Shown: positions 41,557-49,446 of the stretch, piece by piece
Layout: each line of letters starts with the position of its first letter
Position numbering within the stretch: the stretch's first letter is position 1
Source: a virus
Taxonomy: Duplodnaviria > Heunggongvirae > Uroviricota > Caudoviricetes
Strand: one strand, 5' to 3'
Length of the DNA: 49,446 nucleotides
IMG/VR virus record: IMGVR_UViG_2563366799_000006
Made by a program: the position numbers and the translations under genes
The notes under the pieces: generated by a model
What the model saw: only the letters and a program-made list of their open reading frames with translations
What the model was told of the DNA's origin: nothing
Database searches by the model: none

Positions 41557-44500
41557 ATGGAAGCGATCACTGGTGCAAAGGGTGGCAGCCAGAAGCAGCA
41601 CACACCTGTAGAACAGCCCGATTCGGCTCAGTCAATGGCGCGCTGCCGCATGCTGCTGGCGCTCGGGGAGGGGGAGTTTGCTGGTGGCCTGGATGCGACC
41701 CGGATATTCCTGGACGGTACGCCGTTGGGAAACCCCGACGGAACGATGAATTTTGAAAATGTGTCATGGGATTTCCGGCCTGGCACACAGACCCAGACAC
41801 CAATACCGGGATTCCCTGCAGTCGAGAATGAAACTACGGTTGGGGTATCGCTGACAAAGGCCACACCATGGACCCGCGCACTGAGTAACACCCAGATTGA
41901 CGCGGTGCTGGTTCGTATTGGCATCCCTGGGTTACAGCAGCAGGAAAACGATGGGGATATTGTCGGCACTACGGTTCAGTACCATATTGATCTGGCGGTG
42001 GACGGTGGCGCTTACTCGACAGTCATGACGAAAACCGTCACAGAGAAGCTCAGCTCGCTCTATGAACTAACCCACCGTATTAATCTTCCCAAAGCCAGCA
42101 CTGGCTGGCAAATTCGAGTGGTGCGTGACACCGATGACAGCACCAGCCAGATGCTGCAGAACAAAACGCAGGTGCAAGCGATTACTGAAGTGATCGATGC
42201 TCGCCTGCGATATCCACACACAGCGCTGCTGTACGTGTCCTTTAACGCAAAGTCATTCAACAACATCCCTAAGATTTCCTGCATGCCGAAGGGGCGCATC
42301 ATCCGAATCCCTTCGAACTATGATCCAATAGCGCGGACTTATAGCGGAACATGGGACGGGACGTTTAAATGGGGCTGGACGAATAACCCGGCGTGGATTT
42401 GGTTCGATGTTCTGACTGAGCCGCGCTTCGGCCTTGGGCGCCGCGTGACGCCAGAAATGCTCGATAAGTGGGAGCTCTATCGCATCGCCCAGCGCTGCGA
42501 CCAGAAGGTACCCGACGGGAAAGGCGGAAGCGGTACCGAGCCACGCTTCATGTTTGACGTTTACATCCAGTCCCAGGCTGATGCCTGGCAGGTGATTAAA
42601 GATATTGCCGCGGGCTTCAACGGAATGACTTTCTGGGGCAACAACATGTTCAATGTTGTCTCTGACATGCCGGCGGACACTACGAAGTTGCAGATCCTCA
42701 CTCGCGCATCAGTGGTGGGTAAGCCGGTGTACTCGAGTGGCAGTGAGAAAAACCGATTCTCCAGCGCGCTGATTAACTTCAGCGATCCGGATAACCACTA
42801 CCAGGACCGCACCACGGCAGTGATGTTTCCGGAACTGGTAAGGCAGTTCAAGTTTAAGCAGACACAAATCACTGCGATCGGTTGTACGCGTGAGAGCGAG
42901 GCGCAGCGGCGTGGCGGGTGGGCGGTGTATTCCAACTCCCTTGACCGCATTATCACGCTTCAGACTGGACTTGATGGCTTTGTATTCGTGCCGGGCACCG
43001 TATTTGCGTTTGCAGATGAACGCCTGTCAGGGCGCGTTTACGGCGGGCGTATCACCGGGTATAACGCTGGTCTTAAGGCCGTGACCATTGACCGGGGCAC
43101 CAGTGCGGTGGCGGGCGATACGCTGATGATTCGCACCCAGGGCGGTACCGTTGAAAGCCGGGTGATACAGGCCGTAAATGGCACGCAGCTGATCCTGTCC
43201 ACGCCGTTCACGGCGGCGCCATTACCTAATGCCGTATTCGTCATTGATGCTGGTCAGCTGCGCCTGCAGTATTTCCGGGTAACGAACCTAAAATTTGATG
43301 ATGAGGAAAACACCTTCACCATTACCGGTGCGGAGTATAACGCGTCGAAATACGACGCCGTTGATAACAATGCTCGCCTCGATACTCCTCCGATAAGCCT
43401 GATTCCGACCGGGCTAGTTAACCAGCCGACCAACATCGTGGTATCGAGCTATGATGCGGTTCGCCAGGGGCAACGCGTGGCCACGCTAACCGCCTCGTGG
43501 GATGCGCCAATTGATAAAGACGGCAAACTGCAGTCGGACGTAATAGCGTACCGGGCACAGTGGAAGCGCGGAAATAACGAATGGGTAAACGTGCCTGAAA
43601 CCGGGTTACGAAATATCGAAGTGCCTGGCATTTTCGAGGGCGATTACCTTGTGCGCGTCCGTGCGATTAACTCTGGGGGAGCGTCCAGCCTTTGGGCCAC
43701 GTCTGCGTTGACCCATCTTACCGGCCGCACCGGTGAAGTGCCCAAACCTGTCGGACTAACAGCAACAGAGGATGTTGTATTTGGGATCAACATTACATGG
43801 GGTTTCCCCGCAGATACCGCCGACACCCTGAGCACGGAACTGCAATACAGCGCTTCAGTCGATGGGGCAAATCCAATGCTTTTGGCGTCGGTGCCGTATC
43901 CTCAGAAACTCTATCAGCAGATGGGGCTGAAGGCAGGGCAGGAATTCTGGTACCGGGCACGGCTGGTTGACCGCATCGGGAATCAGAGCGACTGGACAGA
44001 CTGGGTGCGCGGGCAGGCCAGCATCGATGTTTCCGATATCACCGATGCAATCCTGGAGGACATGAAAGGCTCCGATACGTTCAAAGACCTGATCGAGAAC
44101 GCGGTGGACAGCAATGAAAAAATTGCTGGCATGGCTGACGAAATTAAAAACCATGCCGACGAACTCGAGCAGCAGGCGAAAGACATCCTGGAGAACGCTG
44201 ACGGGCTGGCTCAGGCCGAAGTGAAGATCGACGAGATTTCTGTGTCGATGGACGGCATGACGGGAGGAGTGAAGAACTCGGCAATCGCGATTATTCAGAA
44301 TGGGCTGGCGCAGGTGGTAAGCCGTCGCTCGCAGACCGCCACGAACGCCGGGAACAGTGCCAGTATAGACAGAGTGGATACTACGATTGCCGATACCAGC
44401 CAGGCGGTCGCACGCGCGCTGGTCACACTGGATGCAGAAGCTGGTGGCAATATCTCTAACTCAACGGACCTGACAGAAACTCTTGCTGATTTCACCCAGG

Positions 44501-45036
44501 CTTCGGCAACAAAAATCAACACTCTGACTGTTAAATCAGGCGAAAACAGTGCAGCGATAAACGTCAACGCACAGGCTATAGCAGATGTAAACGGTAACCT
44601 CAGCGCGATGTATAACATCAAGGTGGGGGTGTCCAGTAACGGGCAGTATTACGCTGCCGGGATGGGTATTGGGGTTCAAAATACACCCTCCGGCATGCAG
44701 TCACAGGTAATCTTCCTGGCAGACCGTTTCGCCGTGACTACTATGGTCGGCGGGACTGTAACACTGCCGTTCGTTATCCAGAATGGCCAGGCCATTATCA
44801 GGGATACAGTCATTGGCGACGGGACCATAAGCAATGCAAAAATTGGCAATTACATCCAGTCGAACAATTATGTTGCCGGCTCTGTTGGCTGGAAACTGGA
44901 TAAGTCCGGGACGTTTGAGAACTACGGTTCGACAGCTGGGGAGGGAGCCATGAAGCAGACCAACCAGACAATCAGCGTCAAGGATGGCAACAACGTTCTG
45001 AGAGTGCAGGTTGGCCGATTAACGGGGGTGTTCTGA
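41557..45036 (+). CDS. J: Host specificity protein J (central tail fibre/tip)
   Basis: 1159 aa; follows I; size and position. Confidence 0.9.
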   Translation: MEAITGAKGGSQKQHTPVEQPDSAQSMARCRMLLALGEGEFAGGLDATRIFLDGTPLGNPDGTMNFENVSWDFRPGTQTQTPIPGFPAVENETTVGVSLTKATPWTRALSNTQIDAVLVRIGIPGLQQQENDGDIVGTTVQYHIDLAVDGGAYSTVMTKTVTEKLSSLYELTHRINLPKASTGWQIRVVRDTDDSTSQMLQNKTQVQAITEVIDARLRYPHTALLYVSFNAKSFNNIPKISCMPKGRIIRIPSNYDPIARTYSGTWDGTFKWGWTNNPAWIWFDVLTEPRFGLGRRVTPEMLDKWELYRIAQRCDQKVPDGKGGSGTEPRFMFDVYIQSQADAWQVIKDIAAGFNGMTFWGNNMFNVVSDMPADTTKLQILTRASVVGKPVYSSGSEKNRFSSALINFSDPDNHYQDRTTAVMFPELVRQFKFKQTQITAIGCTRESEAQRRGGWAVYSNSLDRIITLQTGLDGFVFVPGTVFAFADERLSGRVYGGRITGYNAGLKAVTIDRGTSAVAGDTLMIRTQGGTVESRVIQAVNGTQLILSTPFTAAPLPNAVFVIDAGQLRLQYFRVTNLKFDDEENTFTITGAEYNASKYDAVDNNARLDTPPISLIPTGLVNQPTNIVVSSYDAVRQGQRVATLTASWDAPIDKDGKLQSDVIAYRAQWKRGNNEWVNVPETGLRNIEVPGIFEGDYLVRVRAINSGGASSLWATSALTHLTGRTGEVPKPVGLTATEDVVFGINITWGFPADTADTLSTELQYSASVDGANPMLLASVPYPQKLYQQMGLKAGQEFWYRARLVDRIGNQSDWTDWVRGQASIDVSDITDAILEDMKGSDTFKDLIENAVDSNEKIAGMADEIKNHADELEQQAKDILENADGLAQAEVKIDEISVSMDGMTGGVKNSAIAIIQNGLAQVVSRRSQTATNAGNSASIDRVDTTIADTSQAVARALVTLDAEAGGNISNSTDLTETLADFTQASATKINTLTVKSGENSAAINVNAQAIADVNGNLSAMYNIKVGVSSNGQYYAAGMGIGVQNTPSGMQSQVIFLADRFAVTTMVGGTVTLPFVIQNGQAIIRDTVIGDGTISNAKIGNYIQSNNYVAGSVGWKLDKSGTFENYGSTAGEGAMKQTNQTISVKDGNNVLRVQVGRLTGVF

Positions 45037-45037
45037 T

Positions 45038-45340
45038 ATGGCTTATGGAATACAGACCTGGGATGCTTCGGGAAACCCCAACAACTACGGAATCAAGCCC
45101 GTTTCCGTTGTTGGACGTATACAACTTGCCGCCGGACAAAACTCCGGCAGCTGGTCTTTCACTGTACCCTCAGGAATGAAGGTCGGTTTTGCGCTCTCAC
45201 TTGATGAAGGAGGTAACAGCGTAGGGAGGAGCATTGTCGCGTCAGGGAACACAATAACCGTAACCGCAGCCTCTTCTGTGGGCCTGGGTAATTACCCGGC
45301 CTCTAAATGTGAGGTGGTCGTTTTCATGGAGAAAGCATAA
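45038..45340 (+). CDS. Hypothetical tail-associated protein (WDASG motif)
   Basis: 100 aa; start 2 bp after the J stop. Confidence 0.5.
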   Translation: MAYGIQTWDASGNPNNYGIKPVSVVGRIQLAAGQNSGSWSFTVPSGMKVGFALSLDEGGNSVGRSIVASGNTITVTAASSVGLGNYPASKCEVVVFMEKA

Positions 45341-46014
45341 TGGCCGAATTTGGCGCGATGATATTAATGGATAACGGGAATCCCTTTGTAACGCCACAAT
45401 CAACGCCTTTCTGTCTTTACGGGAAGTATACCTTCAATTCATCCGCGAATGGCAGTTCTCAGCAGGTTGCTCAAAATATCGCTTTAAACGCTGATTACCC
45501 AGTGATGGTTTTTATCAAAACCACCAATACAGCACAGCCCACTCCGGTTATGTCTTACAGGAACGGCGGTAATGTGTATGTTGCTGGTGTTAATCCCTAC
45601 AACCAAAGTTTCACTTTAACGGCGTACGTTTTTGCCATATTCCCGCAGATATTACCGAAATGGGGTTTGGCAATATGGGATGCGAGCGGAAAGCTTGTGT
45701 TAACTAATGAGTCCCGTGTGCTATCAGACCTGCAGACGGTTGGCACGCCTGGTGCAAACGGCGGGATAAATATTGACCAGACGCTGAGCGGGTCATGGGC
45801 CGTTGCACCTGCTCAGTTGGGTCAGACCATCATTGTGAATAATTCAACCCAGCCTCCGACTATCTACACGATAAATGCTTATTCTTCATGCAGGTTTGAC
45901 GGGGCCAATACGAGGATAAACGCAGGGGGGACCTCCACTGGGGCAGGTTCACCTGGAGGGGGAACGAATACTGGCATTTCATTAACCGCCATAAATACAG
46001 CGGCCTATGATTGA
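45340..46014 (+). CDS. Hypothetical tail-associated protein (WDASG motif, paralogous segment to the previous gene)
   Basis: 224 aa; start overlaps the previous stop. Confidence 0.5.
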   Translation: MAEFGAMILMDNGNPFVTPQSTPFCLYGKYTFNSSANGSSQQVAQNIALNADYPVMVFIKTTNTAQPTPVMSYRNGGNVYVAGVNPYNQSFTLTAYVFAIFPQILPKWGLAIWDASGKLVLTNESRVLSDLQTVGTPGANGGINIDQTLSGSWAVAPAQLGQTIIVNNSTQPPTIYTINAYSSCRFDGANTRINAGGTSTGAGSPGGGTNTGISLTAINTAAYD

Positions 46015-46125
46015 TTGATCGTTTTTAGCGATCAATAACATAATATTGATCTATCCAATCAATTATACCCACCAGAATTGTATTGGTATCGTCTAAGATA
46101 CTGAATTCCTCTGGATACTATCAAA

Positions 46126-46359
46126 ATGAGAAAACTGATTATCTGCATGGCAGGCGCTGTCATGCTTACAGGATGCGCTGGCGTAATTGAGAAACAGGAA
46201 CCAGTTTGCAGCGGCACTGCAATCGTTGGCGGTCAGGAAACTACGGTTCAGATTTACGGTGTGCGTAAACAAAACAACCAGACGCAGTACCGGGCTGGAT
46301 ATCCTTTCAGCTGGCGCTGGGTAAGTGCGAATACATTTACCGAAACAACCTGCAAATAA
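46126..46359 (+). CDS. Small lipoprotein (Cor-like superinfection-exclusion candidate by size and position)
   Basis: 77 aa; lipobox LTGC; between J and the tail fibre; terminator downstream. Confidence 0.6.
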   Translation: MRKLIICMAGAVMLTGCAGVIEKQEPVCSGTAIVGGQETTVQIYGVRKQNNQTQYRAGYPFSWRWVSANTFTETTCK

Positions 46360-46382
46360 CCCACTACGCTTAAACATAAACC

Positions 46383-46403
46383 TCGCTCCGGCGGGGTTTT
46401 TTT
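46383..46403 (+). terminator. Intrinsic terminator
   Basis: CTCGC-tccg-GCGGG followed by TTTTTTT. Confidence 0.5.
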
Positions 46404-46419
46404 ATTGCCTGGAGAAAAT

Positions 46420-47685
46420 ATGCTTTATAACACCGGCACCATCGCCATTAATGGAAATACCGCCACCGGGACGGGTACAAACTGGACGGCACCGGCCAGC
46501 CAGGTCCGCGCTGGCCAGACGATCATCGTCATGTCTAACCCGGTGCAGATGTTCCAGATTTCATCTGTGAACAGCGCCACGTCAATGACGGTTACGCCTG
46601 CTGCTTCCCCGGCGCTGAGCGGCCAGAAGTATGGAATCCTGGTGTCCGATAACATCTCTGTCGACGGACTGGCGCAGGCGATGTCGCAGCTCATCAAAGA
46701 GTATGACGAGAACATTGGCGCGTGGGAGACATTCGCCACTACCTCAGCAAACCAGACCATCACCGTTACCATCAACGGAACCTCCGTTAATATTCCAAGT
46801 ATTGGCGCGCTTGCCAGAAAGGGGTCCAACAACGATATCACCGAGCTGAAAGGGCTCACAACTGCGCTTTCTGTTGCACAGGGCGGGACTGGGGCAAAGA
46901 CCGAAGCTGACGCTCGCACAAACCTCGGTTTAGGAGACAGCGCCACAAGGAACGTCGGAACGGCGGCCGGAACCGTGGCAGCTGGCGACGATTCACGGCT
47001 TGGAAGCGTTAACGGTAAAACGGGGGGGACGATTTCATCTGCTGTGACGATCAACGGTGTTGGTGGCGGAGCAACTGACTGGCATACAAATGCCGGCGGT
47101 GGTTTAGGGGTCAGAAAGGGAAGTGGCGGTGATAACTCCATTGAGATGAATAATACGACAAATGATTCATCTCAGGGCAATTATGTAAACCAGATAGTTG
47201 GTAAGTGGTATAGCGGTTCATGGGCGCTAGGTGCAATACGGAGCGGCTCGACTCCACTTGATCGTGTTCAGTTAAATGTGATAGCGGAATCTGGTGGGGC
47301 AGCCGCATCGTTTATGTTTTACCCTGATGGTCGTGGCACTGGTGGTCAATGGGTATCGCTCTCAGATGCGCGTATAAAAAAAGACATCGCGCGCATATCC
47401 GATCCTCTCATAAAGATGAAAGCCATTAAAGGCTGCTTTTGGGAGCGTATAGACAATGAAACTACGGGTTACGGCTTTATTGCACAGGACGTTGAGCAAG
47501 TATTTCCCGAAGCTGTTAAAGGTGGCTATGATATTACTCTGGAGGACGGAACAGTTATTCCTGATGTGAAAACTGTCGATACTTACGGGGTTGCTGCAGC
47601 TTTGCACCATGAGGCAATTCTGGCCCTAATGGTTAGGGTCGATAATTTGACGAGTAAGGTGGAAAAACTGGAACAAGGAAGCTGA
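46420..47685 (+). CDS. Side tail fibre with C-terminal S74-type intramolecular chaperone domain; C-terminal part lies in an invertible segment
   Basis: ATG at 46420 with GGAG RBS (ORF track 46405 uses TTG); C-terminus ...SDARIKKDI...GFIAQDVEQVFPEAV; crossover site inside the gene at 46913-46938. Confidence 0.8.
   Translation: MLYNTGTIAINGNTATGTGTNWTAPASQVRAGQTIIVMSNPVQMFQISSVNSATSMTVTPAASPALSGQKYGILVSDNISVDGLAQAMSQLIKEYDENIGAWETFATTSANQTITVTINGTSVNIPSIGALARKGSNNDITELKGLTTALSVAQGGTGAKTEADARTNLGLGDSATRNVGTAAGTVAAGDDSRLGSVNGKTGGTISSAVTINGVGGGATDWHTNAGGGLGVRKGSGGDNSIEMNNTTNDSSQGNYVNQIVGKWYSGSWALGAIRSGSTPLDRVQLNVIAESGGAAASFMFYPDGRGTGGQWVSLSDARIKKDIARISDPLIKMKAIKGCFWERIDNETTGYGFIAQDVEQVFPEAVKGGYDITLEDGTVIPDVKTVDTYGVAAALHHEAILALMVRVDNLTSKVEKLEQGS
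46913..46938 (+). other. gix/hix-like inversion crossover site (left)
   Basis: CTCGCACAAACC-TC-GGTTTAGGAGAC, imperfect 12-2-12 dyad with AAACC..GGTTT core. Confidence 0.55.
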
Positions 47686-47692
47686 ATAATTT

Positions 47693-47721
47693 GCAGCCCG
47701 TAATTTGCCGGAACGGGCTGC
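47693..47721. terminator. Hairpin between the convergent fibre cassettes (possible bidirectional terminator)
   Basis: GCAGCCCG-13 nt-CGGGCTGC; AT-rich flank on the minus-strand side. Confidence 0.35.
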
Positions 47722-47738
47722 AGTTGAATGCTCAGGAT

Positions 47739-48818
47739 TCATGATGCCGCTATTTTTAGCTTAAGCTCCTGGAGCTCTTTCTGTGTTGTCTCCAGCTGTT
47801 TAATGACGTAGTTCAATGCCAGCACGGTATCAAGCATGATGACGTTGTTATCCAGTGCCAACGTATCATCAGCATCAACCCTGTTTCCTTCACTATCAAA
47901 CTTTGGCGCAGCAGGGACCAGCTTTACGTACTCACTATCAATCTTCATGACGTCCTGAGCGATTACACCTCGGCGAACTCTCTCACGAGGGTCATCGTTG
48001 TAGACGTAAGTTGCTGGCAGGAATTTCCTGATATTCTCGTATGACTGATAACCATCATCATATTTAATATCGTGCTTCAGCGTAATGTCACAGTTAGGCT
48101 GCTTCTGGAAAATATAGTTCCCGGAAAGATTCCCACCAGCGTTGGCATATATATCACCGTTTGCTGTCGTGAATTGAAATATACGCTGACCGGCAGAGCC
48201 ACCATCCCCAAGTGTTGTTATTGCCACATCCGCCCACGGACTAGGCCCGGTAGCTATAGAACCAAGCCCTACCGTTGAAGAATATCCGCCACTGCATTGA
48301 CTATGCCAGCGGGCAAAGGGAATGAAACCAGCATCATTATTAACTGCAACATTACCCCTAAAAAAAGATATATTTCTTTGCCATGTATTAATGTCTGACC
48401 AGGAGCCACCATATCCAGCTCCATTTGCTCCACACGAAGATGATTTGAATCTCTCATCAGGGTAAAATAAAAATGAACCCGCCGTACCAGTTCCGCTATT
48501 TACATTTAACTGCGCTCTGTCTAAATTAGTCCCACTCCCCCGAACGCCGCCAAGAGACCAGTTCCCATTATACCAAGCTCCTCCCACAGCGTTTACATAA
48601 CTTCCGACAGTCCCATCCCCTGTAATGTTGTATAGCTTAACAGCCTTATCACCACCTTCCTGCGTGGATACTCCAATACTATTTCCCTGAGTTACCATCA
48701 AACTGCCGGTAACATTTCCCCCTGTTTTTTTATCGACAGTATTCAACCGCGAATCATCCCCGGCTGCCACGGTTCCGGCCGCCGTTCCGACGTCCTTCGT
48801 CGCGCTACTTCCTAAACC
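47739..48818 (-). CDS. Alternative tail-fibre C-terminal cassette (promoterless; expressed only after inversion)
   Basis: Minus-strand frame open from the right crossover site to the stop at 47739-47741; begins SATKDVGTAAGTVAAGDDSRL, parallel to the + fibre; own C-terminal chaperone-type domain (RGVIAQDVMKIDSEYV); ORF track 47739..48770 uses an internal GTG. Confidence 0.65.
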   Translation of the reverse strand, partial: GLGSSATKDVGTAAGTVAAGDDSRLNTVDKKTGGNVTGSLMVTQGNSIGVSTQEGGDKAVKLYNITGDGTVGSYVNAVGGAWYNGNWSLGGVRGSGTNLDRAQLNVNSGTGTAGSFLFYPDERFKSSSCGANGAGYGGSWSDINTWQRNISFFRGNVAVNNDAGFIPFARWHSQCSGGYSSTVGLGSIATGPSPWADVAITTLGDGGSAGQRIFQFTTANGDIYANAGGNLSGNYIFQKQPNCDITLKHDIKYDDGYQSYENIRKFLPATYVYNDDPRERVRRGVIAQDVMKIDSEYVKLVPAAPKFDSEGNRVDADDTLALDNNVIMLDTVLALNYVIKQLETTQKELQELKLKIAAS

Positions 48819-48832
48819 GACGTTTTATAGAT
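48807..48832 (-). other. gix/hix-like inversion crossover site (right, inverted)
   Basis: Reverse complement reads ATCTATAAAACG-TC-GGTTTAGGAAGT; right half matches the left site 10/12, same central TC. Confidence 0.55.
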
Positions 48833-48888: not shown

Positions 48889-49446
48889 GTGAAAAATATG
48901 CAAATTGGCTATGTCAGAGTGTCAACAAATGACCAAAATACAGATCTCCAGCGCCAAGCTCTCGAACGCGCAGGATGTGAACAGGTTTTTGAAGAAAAAA
49001 TGAGCGGGACGGTAGCGAACCGGCCAGCGCTCAAAAAGCTTCTGCGGACTCTGAATGCGGGCGATACACTGGTGGTGTGGAAGCTGGACAGGATAGGCCG
49101 CAACGTTCTGCATGCGCTGTTGATGTTCCAGCAGTTACAGGAAAAGGGTATCAACTTCCGCAGTATTACCGATGGCGTGGATCTCAAAACAGCCAGCGGC
49201 CGCTATAACTTTCGTAACATCCTTTCCGCAGCACAATATGAATCTGATCTTAATAGCGAACGTACCTTAGCAGGGCTGGCCGTAGCCAGGGCAAAATGGC
49301 GAGTTGGTGGTCGCAGGCCTAAGTTCACGGATGAGCAATGGCGGGAAATGGGGGAGCGGATGGCAACCGGTGAATCACGACAAAGCGTATCAAAAACGTA
49401 TGGAGTAGGGCTCTCAACTCTGTATAAAAAGTTTCCAGCTAGCTGA
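48889..49446 (+). CDS. Serine DNA invertase (Gin/Hin/Pin/Cin family)
   Basis: 185 aa; N-terminus IGYVRVSTNDQNTDLQRQAL with catalytic Ser; GDTLVVWKLDRIGRN; C-terminal HTH GVGLSTLYKKFPA; stop codon is the last three bases of the window. Confidence 0.9.
   Translation: MKNMQIGYVRVSTNDQNTDLQRQALERAGCEQVFEEKMSGTVANRPALKKLLRTLNAGDTLVVWKLDRIGRNVLHALLMFQQLQEKGINFRSITDGVDLKTASGRYNFRNILSAAQYESDLNSERTLAGLAVARAKWRVGGRRPKFTDEQWREMGERMATGESRQSVSKTYGVGLSTLYKKFPAS

Follow-up and report, generated by a model that had tools for sequence, protein, structure and literature searches.

Cor lipoproteins of the phages phi80, N15, HK022 and mEp167 are described in the literature as inactivating the outer membrane receptor FhuA and excluding FhuA-dependent phages; they also lower ferrichrome uptake and protect against colicin M. 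The phi80 record lists its Cor as a "conversion resistant protein Cor precursor", the product of a moron gene, which is processed by signal peptidase II and blocks the TonB-dependent outer membrane FhuA receptor, and the same record annotates the promoter, signal peptide, lipidated cysteine and terminator of the gene. The lipoprotein Llp of phage T5 binds the periplasmic face of the FhuA plug, jams the plug and closes the extracellular loops by reverse allostery. Here we analysed a 49,446-nucleotide stretch of Caudoviricetes DNA (IMG/VR record IMGVR_UViG_2563366799_000006; hereafter the window), in which a 77-codon gene at 46126–46359 is the element under study. Our comparison leaves us highly confident that this gene is best explained as the cor of a phi80/mEp237-type lambdoid prophage of Escherichia coli, apparently a self-contained moron cassette that encodes an FhuA-inactivating lipoprotein. 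The gene is thus an already known one, found in the usual place for phi80-type phages.

The family assignment is carried by sequence identity. All 77 residues of the product are the same as in phi80 Cor (CBH95076 in FN582354), the coding DNA is also identical, and 100% identical proteins are encoded by mEp043, mEp213, HK225 and mEp237, whose record refers to UniProt P17651, "adsorption-inhibiting cor protein". Scored against the NCBIfam equivalog model for "phage exclusion lipoprotein Cor" (NF047972), the product reached 140.9 bits (E = 9e-42, model positions 1–76 of 78), exceeding the curated cutoff of 31 bits by 110 bits, and PHROG 1119, "Cor superinfection exclusion protein", matched with E = 7e-37. 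Pfam holds no Cor family, and the protein rose above no Pfam threshold; sub-threshold matches to DUF4223 (14.8 bits, signal-peptide region) and MiAMP1 (14.7 bits) were dismissed. A tblastn search with Cor against 50,697 phage records found 242 matching records, 15 of them at 99% identity or more, and the locus is present in 45 of 5,426 complete E. coli genomes, 40 of which are at least 99% identical over a 441-nucleotide query comprising the upstream region, cor and the terminator. In E. coli genomes the same locus bears the PGAP gene name "cor". The preliminary description of the window had called the product Cor-like and placed it with the superinfection-exclusion lipoproteins of phi80/HK022/N15-like phages, an interpretation that our results support; with full identity to phi80 Cor and a clear pass of NF047972, similarity to Cor is complete and that wording was an understatement, the window sequence being that of the prototype Cor.

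An antisense open reading frame of 94 codons (46093–46377, − strand) overlaps the gene, and its presence raises the reading that the + strand frame is open by chance or that the antisense frame is the real gene. We give this reading a vanishingly small probability and regard it as refuted by the Cor family matches, since it is the + strand frame that matches both curated models, that has 113 database homologues besides the 242 phage records, with lipobox and cysteines conserved, and that is annotated as cor in phi80, HK022, mEp237 and RefSeq genomes. An Rz1-type spanin lipoprotein was considered for size and lipobox only, and was ruled out, without a specific test, by the Cor match and the location in the tail region.

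The gene and its product comprise the following features.

46126–46359, + strand: cor coding sequence, 77 codons plus TAA, for the precursor of the phage exclusion lipoprotein Cor (open reading frame list, family models and phi80 identity).
46126–46173, + strand: lipoprotein signal peptide, residues 1–16, MRKLIICMAGAVMLTG (sequence, and sig_peptide annotated on the identical phi80 protein).
46174–46176, + strand: codon of Cys17, the predicted lipid-modified N-terminal cysteine of mature Cor, lipobox LTG/C (sequence, family alignments and phi80 annotation).
46174–46356, + strand: mature Cor, 61 residues, 6.8 kDa, with cysteines at mature positions 1, 12 and 60.

As read from the window sequence, the frame opens with ATG, closes with TAA and encodes the 77-residue product MRKLIICMAGAVMLTGCAGVIEKQEPVCSGTAIVGGQETTVQIYGVRKQNNQTQYRAGYPFSWRWVSANTFTETTCK; a lipoprotein of this length with lipobox LTGC, as first described, is correct in its coordinates, length and lipobox. 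The signal peptide combines a positively charged n-region (MRK) with a hydrophobic core and the lipobox L-T-G-C, and would be cleaved by signal peptidase II before Cys17, a residue that is invariant in the broad family alignments and nearly invariant in a further alignment (A2). The residue at position +2 of the mature protein is Ala, not Asp (MRKLIICMAGAVMLTG/CAG). Under the Lol sorting rule of E. coli, Asp at +2 keeps a lipoprotein in the inner membrane. The Ala of Cor therefore implies transfer onward, and the mature protein would be sorted to the outer membrane. In the mature part, the 18-sequence broad alignment shows no variation at C28 and C76, a putative disulphide pair; G58 and F71 likewise do not vary in family alignments, and conservation reaches 90% or more at A57, P60 and F61. 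The conserved motif A57-G58-Y59-P60-F61-x-W63-x-W65 lies within the core IYG...QTQYRAGYPFxWxW.

Around the coding sequence lie the elements of what appears to be a self-contained transcription unit, followed by the tail fibre gene.

46015–46125, no strand assigned: AT-rich intergenic region that precedes cor, with a G+C content of 31.5% (whole window, 52%).
46062–46092, + strand: putative cor promoter with −35 ATTATA at 46062–46067, extended −10 TGGTATCGT at 46084–46092 and start near 46100 (phi80 annotation transferred by alignment).
46378–46403, + strand: intrinsic terminator after cor, stem AAACCUCGC/GCGGGGUUU, loop UCCG, T-run (hairpin scan and folding).
46420–47685, + strand: stf, the side tail fibre gene, whose product carries a Peptidase_S74 chaperone domain at its C-terminus.

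The terminator that had been ascribed to the lipoprotein gene was recovered as a hairpin followed by a T-run. The hairpin (46378–46399) starts 18 bases past the stop codon and has 9 pairs, 5 of them G-C, and a loop of 4; the T-run extends to 46403. The RNA fold has an energy of −15.7 kcal/mol (z = −2.9 against shuffles), and the identical sequence is annotated as rho-independent in phi80 and mEp237. With its AT-rich upstream region and putative promoter, gene and own terminator, cor appears to be a "moron" cassette placed within the late tail operon. Furthermore, a 345-nucleotide tract (46108–46452), which spans the ribosome-binding region, the coding sequence, the terminator and the first 11 stf codons, is 100% identical to phi80, whereas the flanks are 72–92% identical per 100 nucleotides. 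Because synonymous sites are identical as well, the tract looks like the result of recent cassette exchange rather than of selection alone, and the sequence comparison points to a recent exchange between lambdoid phages in which the cor cassette moved as a unit.

We infer that cor is transcribed from its own promoter in the lysogen. Weighing against this, the hexamers of the putative promoter are weak (−35 ATTATA, −10 TATCGT) and differ from phi80 at several positions, and a generic promoter scan instead gave TTGATC-18-CATAAT at 46015–46044, with nothing above background expectation. The gene might thus be intact but silent in the window prophage, the upstream base changes relative to phi80 having abolished the promoter and, with it, lysogenic conversion: about 20 of some 110 upstream positions differ, including the annotated −10 (TATTGT in phi80, TATCGT in the window), and the generic scan gave nothing above background. 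This region is, however, base-for-base the same as in the isolated phage mEp237 over the aligned 131 nucleotides, and blocks of TTGGTAT and CAATTATACCCA are conserved in the window, phi80, mEp237 and HK022. In addition, the near-identity of 40 of the 45 matching E. coli genomes over the 441-nucleotide query argues for maintained function, and a cor without its own promoter would still be transcribed with the late operon. A silent cor is therefore very improbable.

The upstream region also contains two palindromes, TTGATCG-N7-CGATCAA (46015–46035) and ATTGAT-N7-ATCAAT (46045–46063), with the same half-site and the same 7-nucleotide spacer, which lie just upstream of, or overlap, the putative −35. 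Of these, the first is also conserved in phi80 and mEp237, and HK022 has it with one mismatch. Within 35 nucleotides there are three GATC (Dam) sites (46017, 46030 and 46048), compared with 0.37 expected per 111 nucleotides. The palindromes may be an operator or a methylation-sensitive element. Co-regulation of cor with fhuA by Fur and iron was rejected, as the best match upstream to the 19-bp Fur box is 11/19 while 91 sites in the window score at least 12.

The expected action of the protein follows the described Cor proteins. After export, the precursor would receive its lipid on Cys17 and be processed by signal peptidase II; the mature 61-residue protein, as a lipoprotein of the inner leaflet of the outer membrane, would act from the periplasmic side to inactivate FhuA, the TonB-dependent transporter of ferrichrome. 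Adsorption of FhuA-dependent phages (phi80, T1, HK022, N15 and the kind of the window phage itself) would thereby be blocked, and the host would pay with a lower uptake of ferrichrome. The receptor used by the window phage is indicated by its tail-tip protein.

41557–45036, + strand: J, the tail-tip and host-specificity gene.

J matches mEp237 J exactly over its last 260 or so residues, and its last 469 are 80% identical to phi80 J, rising to about 93% over the last 340 or so. phi80 uses FhuA and TonB and depends on FhuA loop L8, and mEp237 is listed in a review (PMC9311878) among the phages unable to infect mEp167 lysogens, with Cor blocking FhuA as the cause. From the J end shared with these two phages and their link to FhuA, it follows that the window phage very probably depends on FhuA as well, so that phages of its own kind would be excluded by its Cor.

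To relate Cor to a lipoprotein of known binding mode, we compared it with T5 Llp, whose precursor likewise has 77 residues (PDB 8A60 chain B with FhuA; 7QJF). In the FhuA–Llp crystal structure 8A60, Llp Ile39–Trp46 takes the place of the N-terminal plug helix, and the extracellular loops EL7 and EL8 fold inward; according to the same paper, AlphaFold2 put Llp on the wrong side of FhuA. An AlphaFold2 model of Cor built with 40 Cor sequences has predicted local distance difference test (pLDDT) values above 90 for residues 28–77 and shows a small beta fold of five strands. The best structural match to this model in the PDB is Llp in its FhuA-bound form (8A60 chain B), giving Cor a predicted Llp-like fold, and a Foldseek search of BFVD returned Cor-type proteins together with further phage lipoproteins. 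At the level of profiles, a full-length alignment with Llp required a broad Cor profile, to which T1-, Dhillonvirus- and Stx-phage-type Cor proteins were added; it matched Llp in hhalign with a probability of 86.5% (E = 4.6e-6, 73 columns), part of the score coming from the signal peptides. In this alignment Cys17, Cys28 and Cys76 of Cor fall on Cys16, Cys26 and Cys73 of Llp, and the most conserved Cor segment, G58–W65 (GYPFSWRW), falls on Llp Ile39–Trp46, a placement of low per-column confidence that serves as a lead only.

Several results weigh against a common mode of action. The two proteins share only 13–19% sequence identity, and, as noted, the hhalign score behind this weak similarity stems in part from the signal peptides. 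A Foldseek search of the PDB did not place Llp among the matches listed, a single-protein sequence search of the PDB gave no matches, and a hidden Markov model search with the narrow profile gave only chance matches with E values of at least 0.7, none of them Llp. In hhalign, the narrow phi80-type Cor profile aligned with Llp over the signal peptide only. In addition, according to a 2026 preprint, the mechanism of Cor at the molecular level "has not yet been elucidated".

Together with the marginal sequence similarity, the preprint's statement leaves room for a Cor that acts without jamming the plug directly and instead makes FhuA indirectly unavailable to phages through a complex with abundant proteins of the outer membrane, namely OmpA, OmpC, OmpF, OmpW, LamB as well as Slp. 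Outer-membrane protein interactions of this kind are given for mEp167 Cor in the part of the review PMC9311878 that cites Arguijo-Hernandez et al. 2018 (Arch Virol 163:2959). We consider this explanation rather unlikely, as the best structural match of Cor in the PDB is FhuA-bound Llp, as the cysteine pattern, precursor length and position of the conserved loop coincide in the two proteins, and as exclusion by Llp was reconstituted with purified FhuA and Llp alone. The direct, Llp-like model and the outer-membrane protein complex model are not mutually exclusive.

By analogy with Llp, then, Cor probably acts through an Llp-like binding mode, in which its conserved GYPFxWxW segment would be the element that contacts the plug. 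For the more specific combination, namely that Cor G58–W65 is the functional equivalent of Llp Ile39–Trp46 and jams the plug from the periplasm in an intermediate of the TonB cycle, and that the cassette was recently exchanged as a unit, we lean only slightly towards acceptance. The structural link found here agrees with recent work: the 2022 and 2026 Llp papers proposed a shared fold and mode of action for Cor and Llp, and the idea of plug jamming is already in the literature. Some residual value lies in the structural and positional mapping of Cor onto Llp and in the mosaic junctions around the cassette. If true, the assignment of plug jamming to G58–W65 would settle the molecular mechanism of Cor.

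The genomic context of cor was also compared among related phages.

45038–46014, + strand: homologues of phi80 gp22 (100 residues, 45038–45340) and gp23 (224 residues, 45340–46014), a conserved pair between J and cor.

The location between the J region and the fibre gene, as first reported, holds on the fibre side, where stf starts at 46420, and is refined on the other, where the gp22 and gp23 homologues separate J from cor. The order J–gp22–gp23–cor–terminator–stf is common to the window, phi80, HK022, mEp237 and E. coli prophages. The gp22–gp23 pair is tightly packed, gp22 starting 2 nucleotides past the J stop codon and gp23 overlapping the gp22 stop codon. Neither gp22 nor gp23 matched a Pfam or NCBIfam family; their sole labels come from PHROG, namely "outer membrane protein" and "membrane associated protein", and no support was seen for these, and they share a short W-D-A-S-G motif (BLASTP E = 0.029). 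More widely, the window represents a lambdoid prophage or phage of mosaic make-up, which combines RecE/RecT, a CI-like repressor (helix-turn-helix and Peptidase_S24) and early genes of the O/P/Q type with a head of the P22 type and a tail of the lambda type.

The phi80 record further lists an antisense "moron" gene 25 (85 residues) within the 5' end of stf, which has its own promoter and shares the cor terminator as a bidirectional hairpin. Its counterpart in the window (46425–46682, − strand) is an open frame, but the annotated ATG is ATA and the open frame runs upstream to 47141 (238 residues), which weakens the case for gene 25 as a real gene in the window. As for the site of integration, a related prophage in E. 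coli H5 lies beside yciI–tonB, the classical phi80 attachment region, and mEp237 has a phi80-like attP. In E. coli H5 (NZ_CP010169, locus L002, 9280–11186), the invertase end of the related prophage abuts yciI and tonB. It is known geography that a prophage with an inhibitor of the TonB-dependent receptor FhuA sits beside tonB, and this provides a context for the probable end of the window.

Downstream of cor, the C-terminal part of the tail fibre (46920–48825) appears to be invertible. Inverted repeats of 79 nucleotides, 85% complementary, at 46920–46998 and 48747–48825 enclose both the 3' part of stf and an open reading frame for an alternative C-terminus in the opposite orientation (47739–48770, − strand), which also has a Peptidase_S74 chaperone domain. 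A putative core resembling the gix/cix sites of Gin and Cin opens both repeats: it reads AAACCTCGGTTTAGGA on the left and, for the right repeat taken as its reverse complement, AAACGTCGGTTTAGGA. A serine invertase (Resolvase and HTH_7) is encoded at 48889–49446, and simulated inversion yields an in-frame alternative fibre of 528 residues in place of the present 421-residue fibre. The layout resembles the Gin/Cin/Pin host-range switches, and E. coli H5 and mEp237 show comparable arrangements.

As a textbook gene of lysogenic conversion whose window copy is identical to the prototype, cor is of use for annotation. A host that carries the prophage should resist T1, phi80, HK022 and other phages that depend on FhuA, and probably colicin M and albomycin as well, while taking up less ferrichrome; host resistance through Cor is also relevant to the choice of therapeutic phages.

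Relative to phi80, about 20 positions of the upstream promoter region have changed, the tail genes around cor are only 72–92% identical, and the downstream fibre is different and, in the window, invertible. In mEp237, the coding DNA of Cor (AFM76178) and the aligned upstream region are identical to the window, the terminator is the same, and in both the late region ends with an invertase. The E. coli prophages at the yciI–tonB (att80) site are grouped with mEp237 as close carriers of cor. By comparison, the N-terminal two-thirds of J are only 32–62% identical to mEp237 per 100-column block, the C-terminus of the fibre differs, and the early region is partly shared, with 32% of window positions 1–25000 covered at 91% identity. 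Among more distant relatives, HK022 Cor (NP_037685) is 79% identical, T1 Cor (QEG04368) about 37% and that of JLBYU60 about 43%. Cor of HK022 and T1 and the Dhillonvirus "super-infection exclusion proteins" have the lipobox, the Cys28–Cys76 pair and the AGYPF motif in common with window Cor, whereas the cor genes of T1-like phages and Dhillonvirus are carried by virulent phages in a different genomic setting. Llp differs in the timing and setting of its action: it is made early in lytic infection by T5, whose infection is TonB-independent, whereas Cor is made from a prophage, and phi80 and T1 need TonB.
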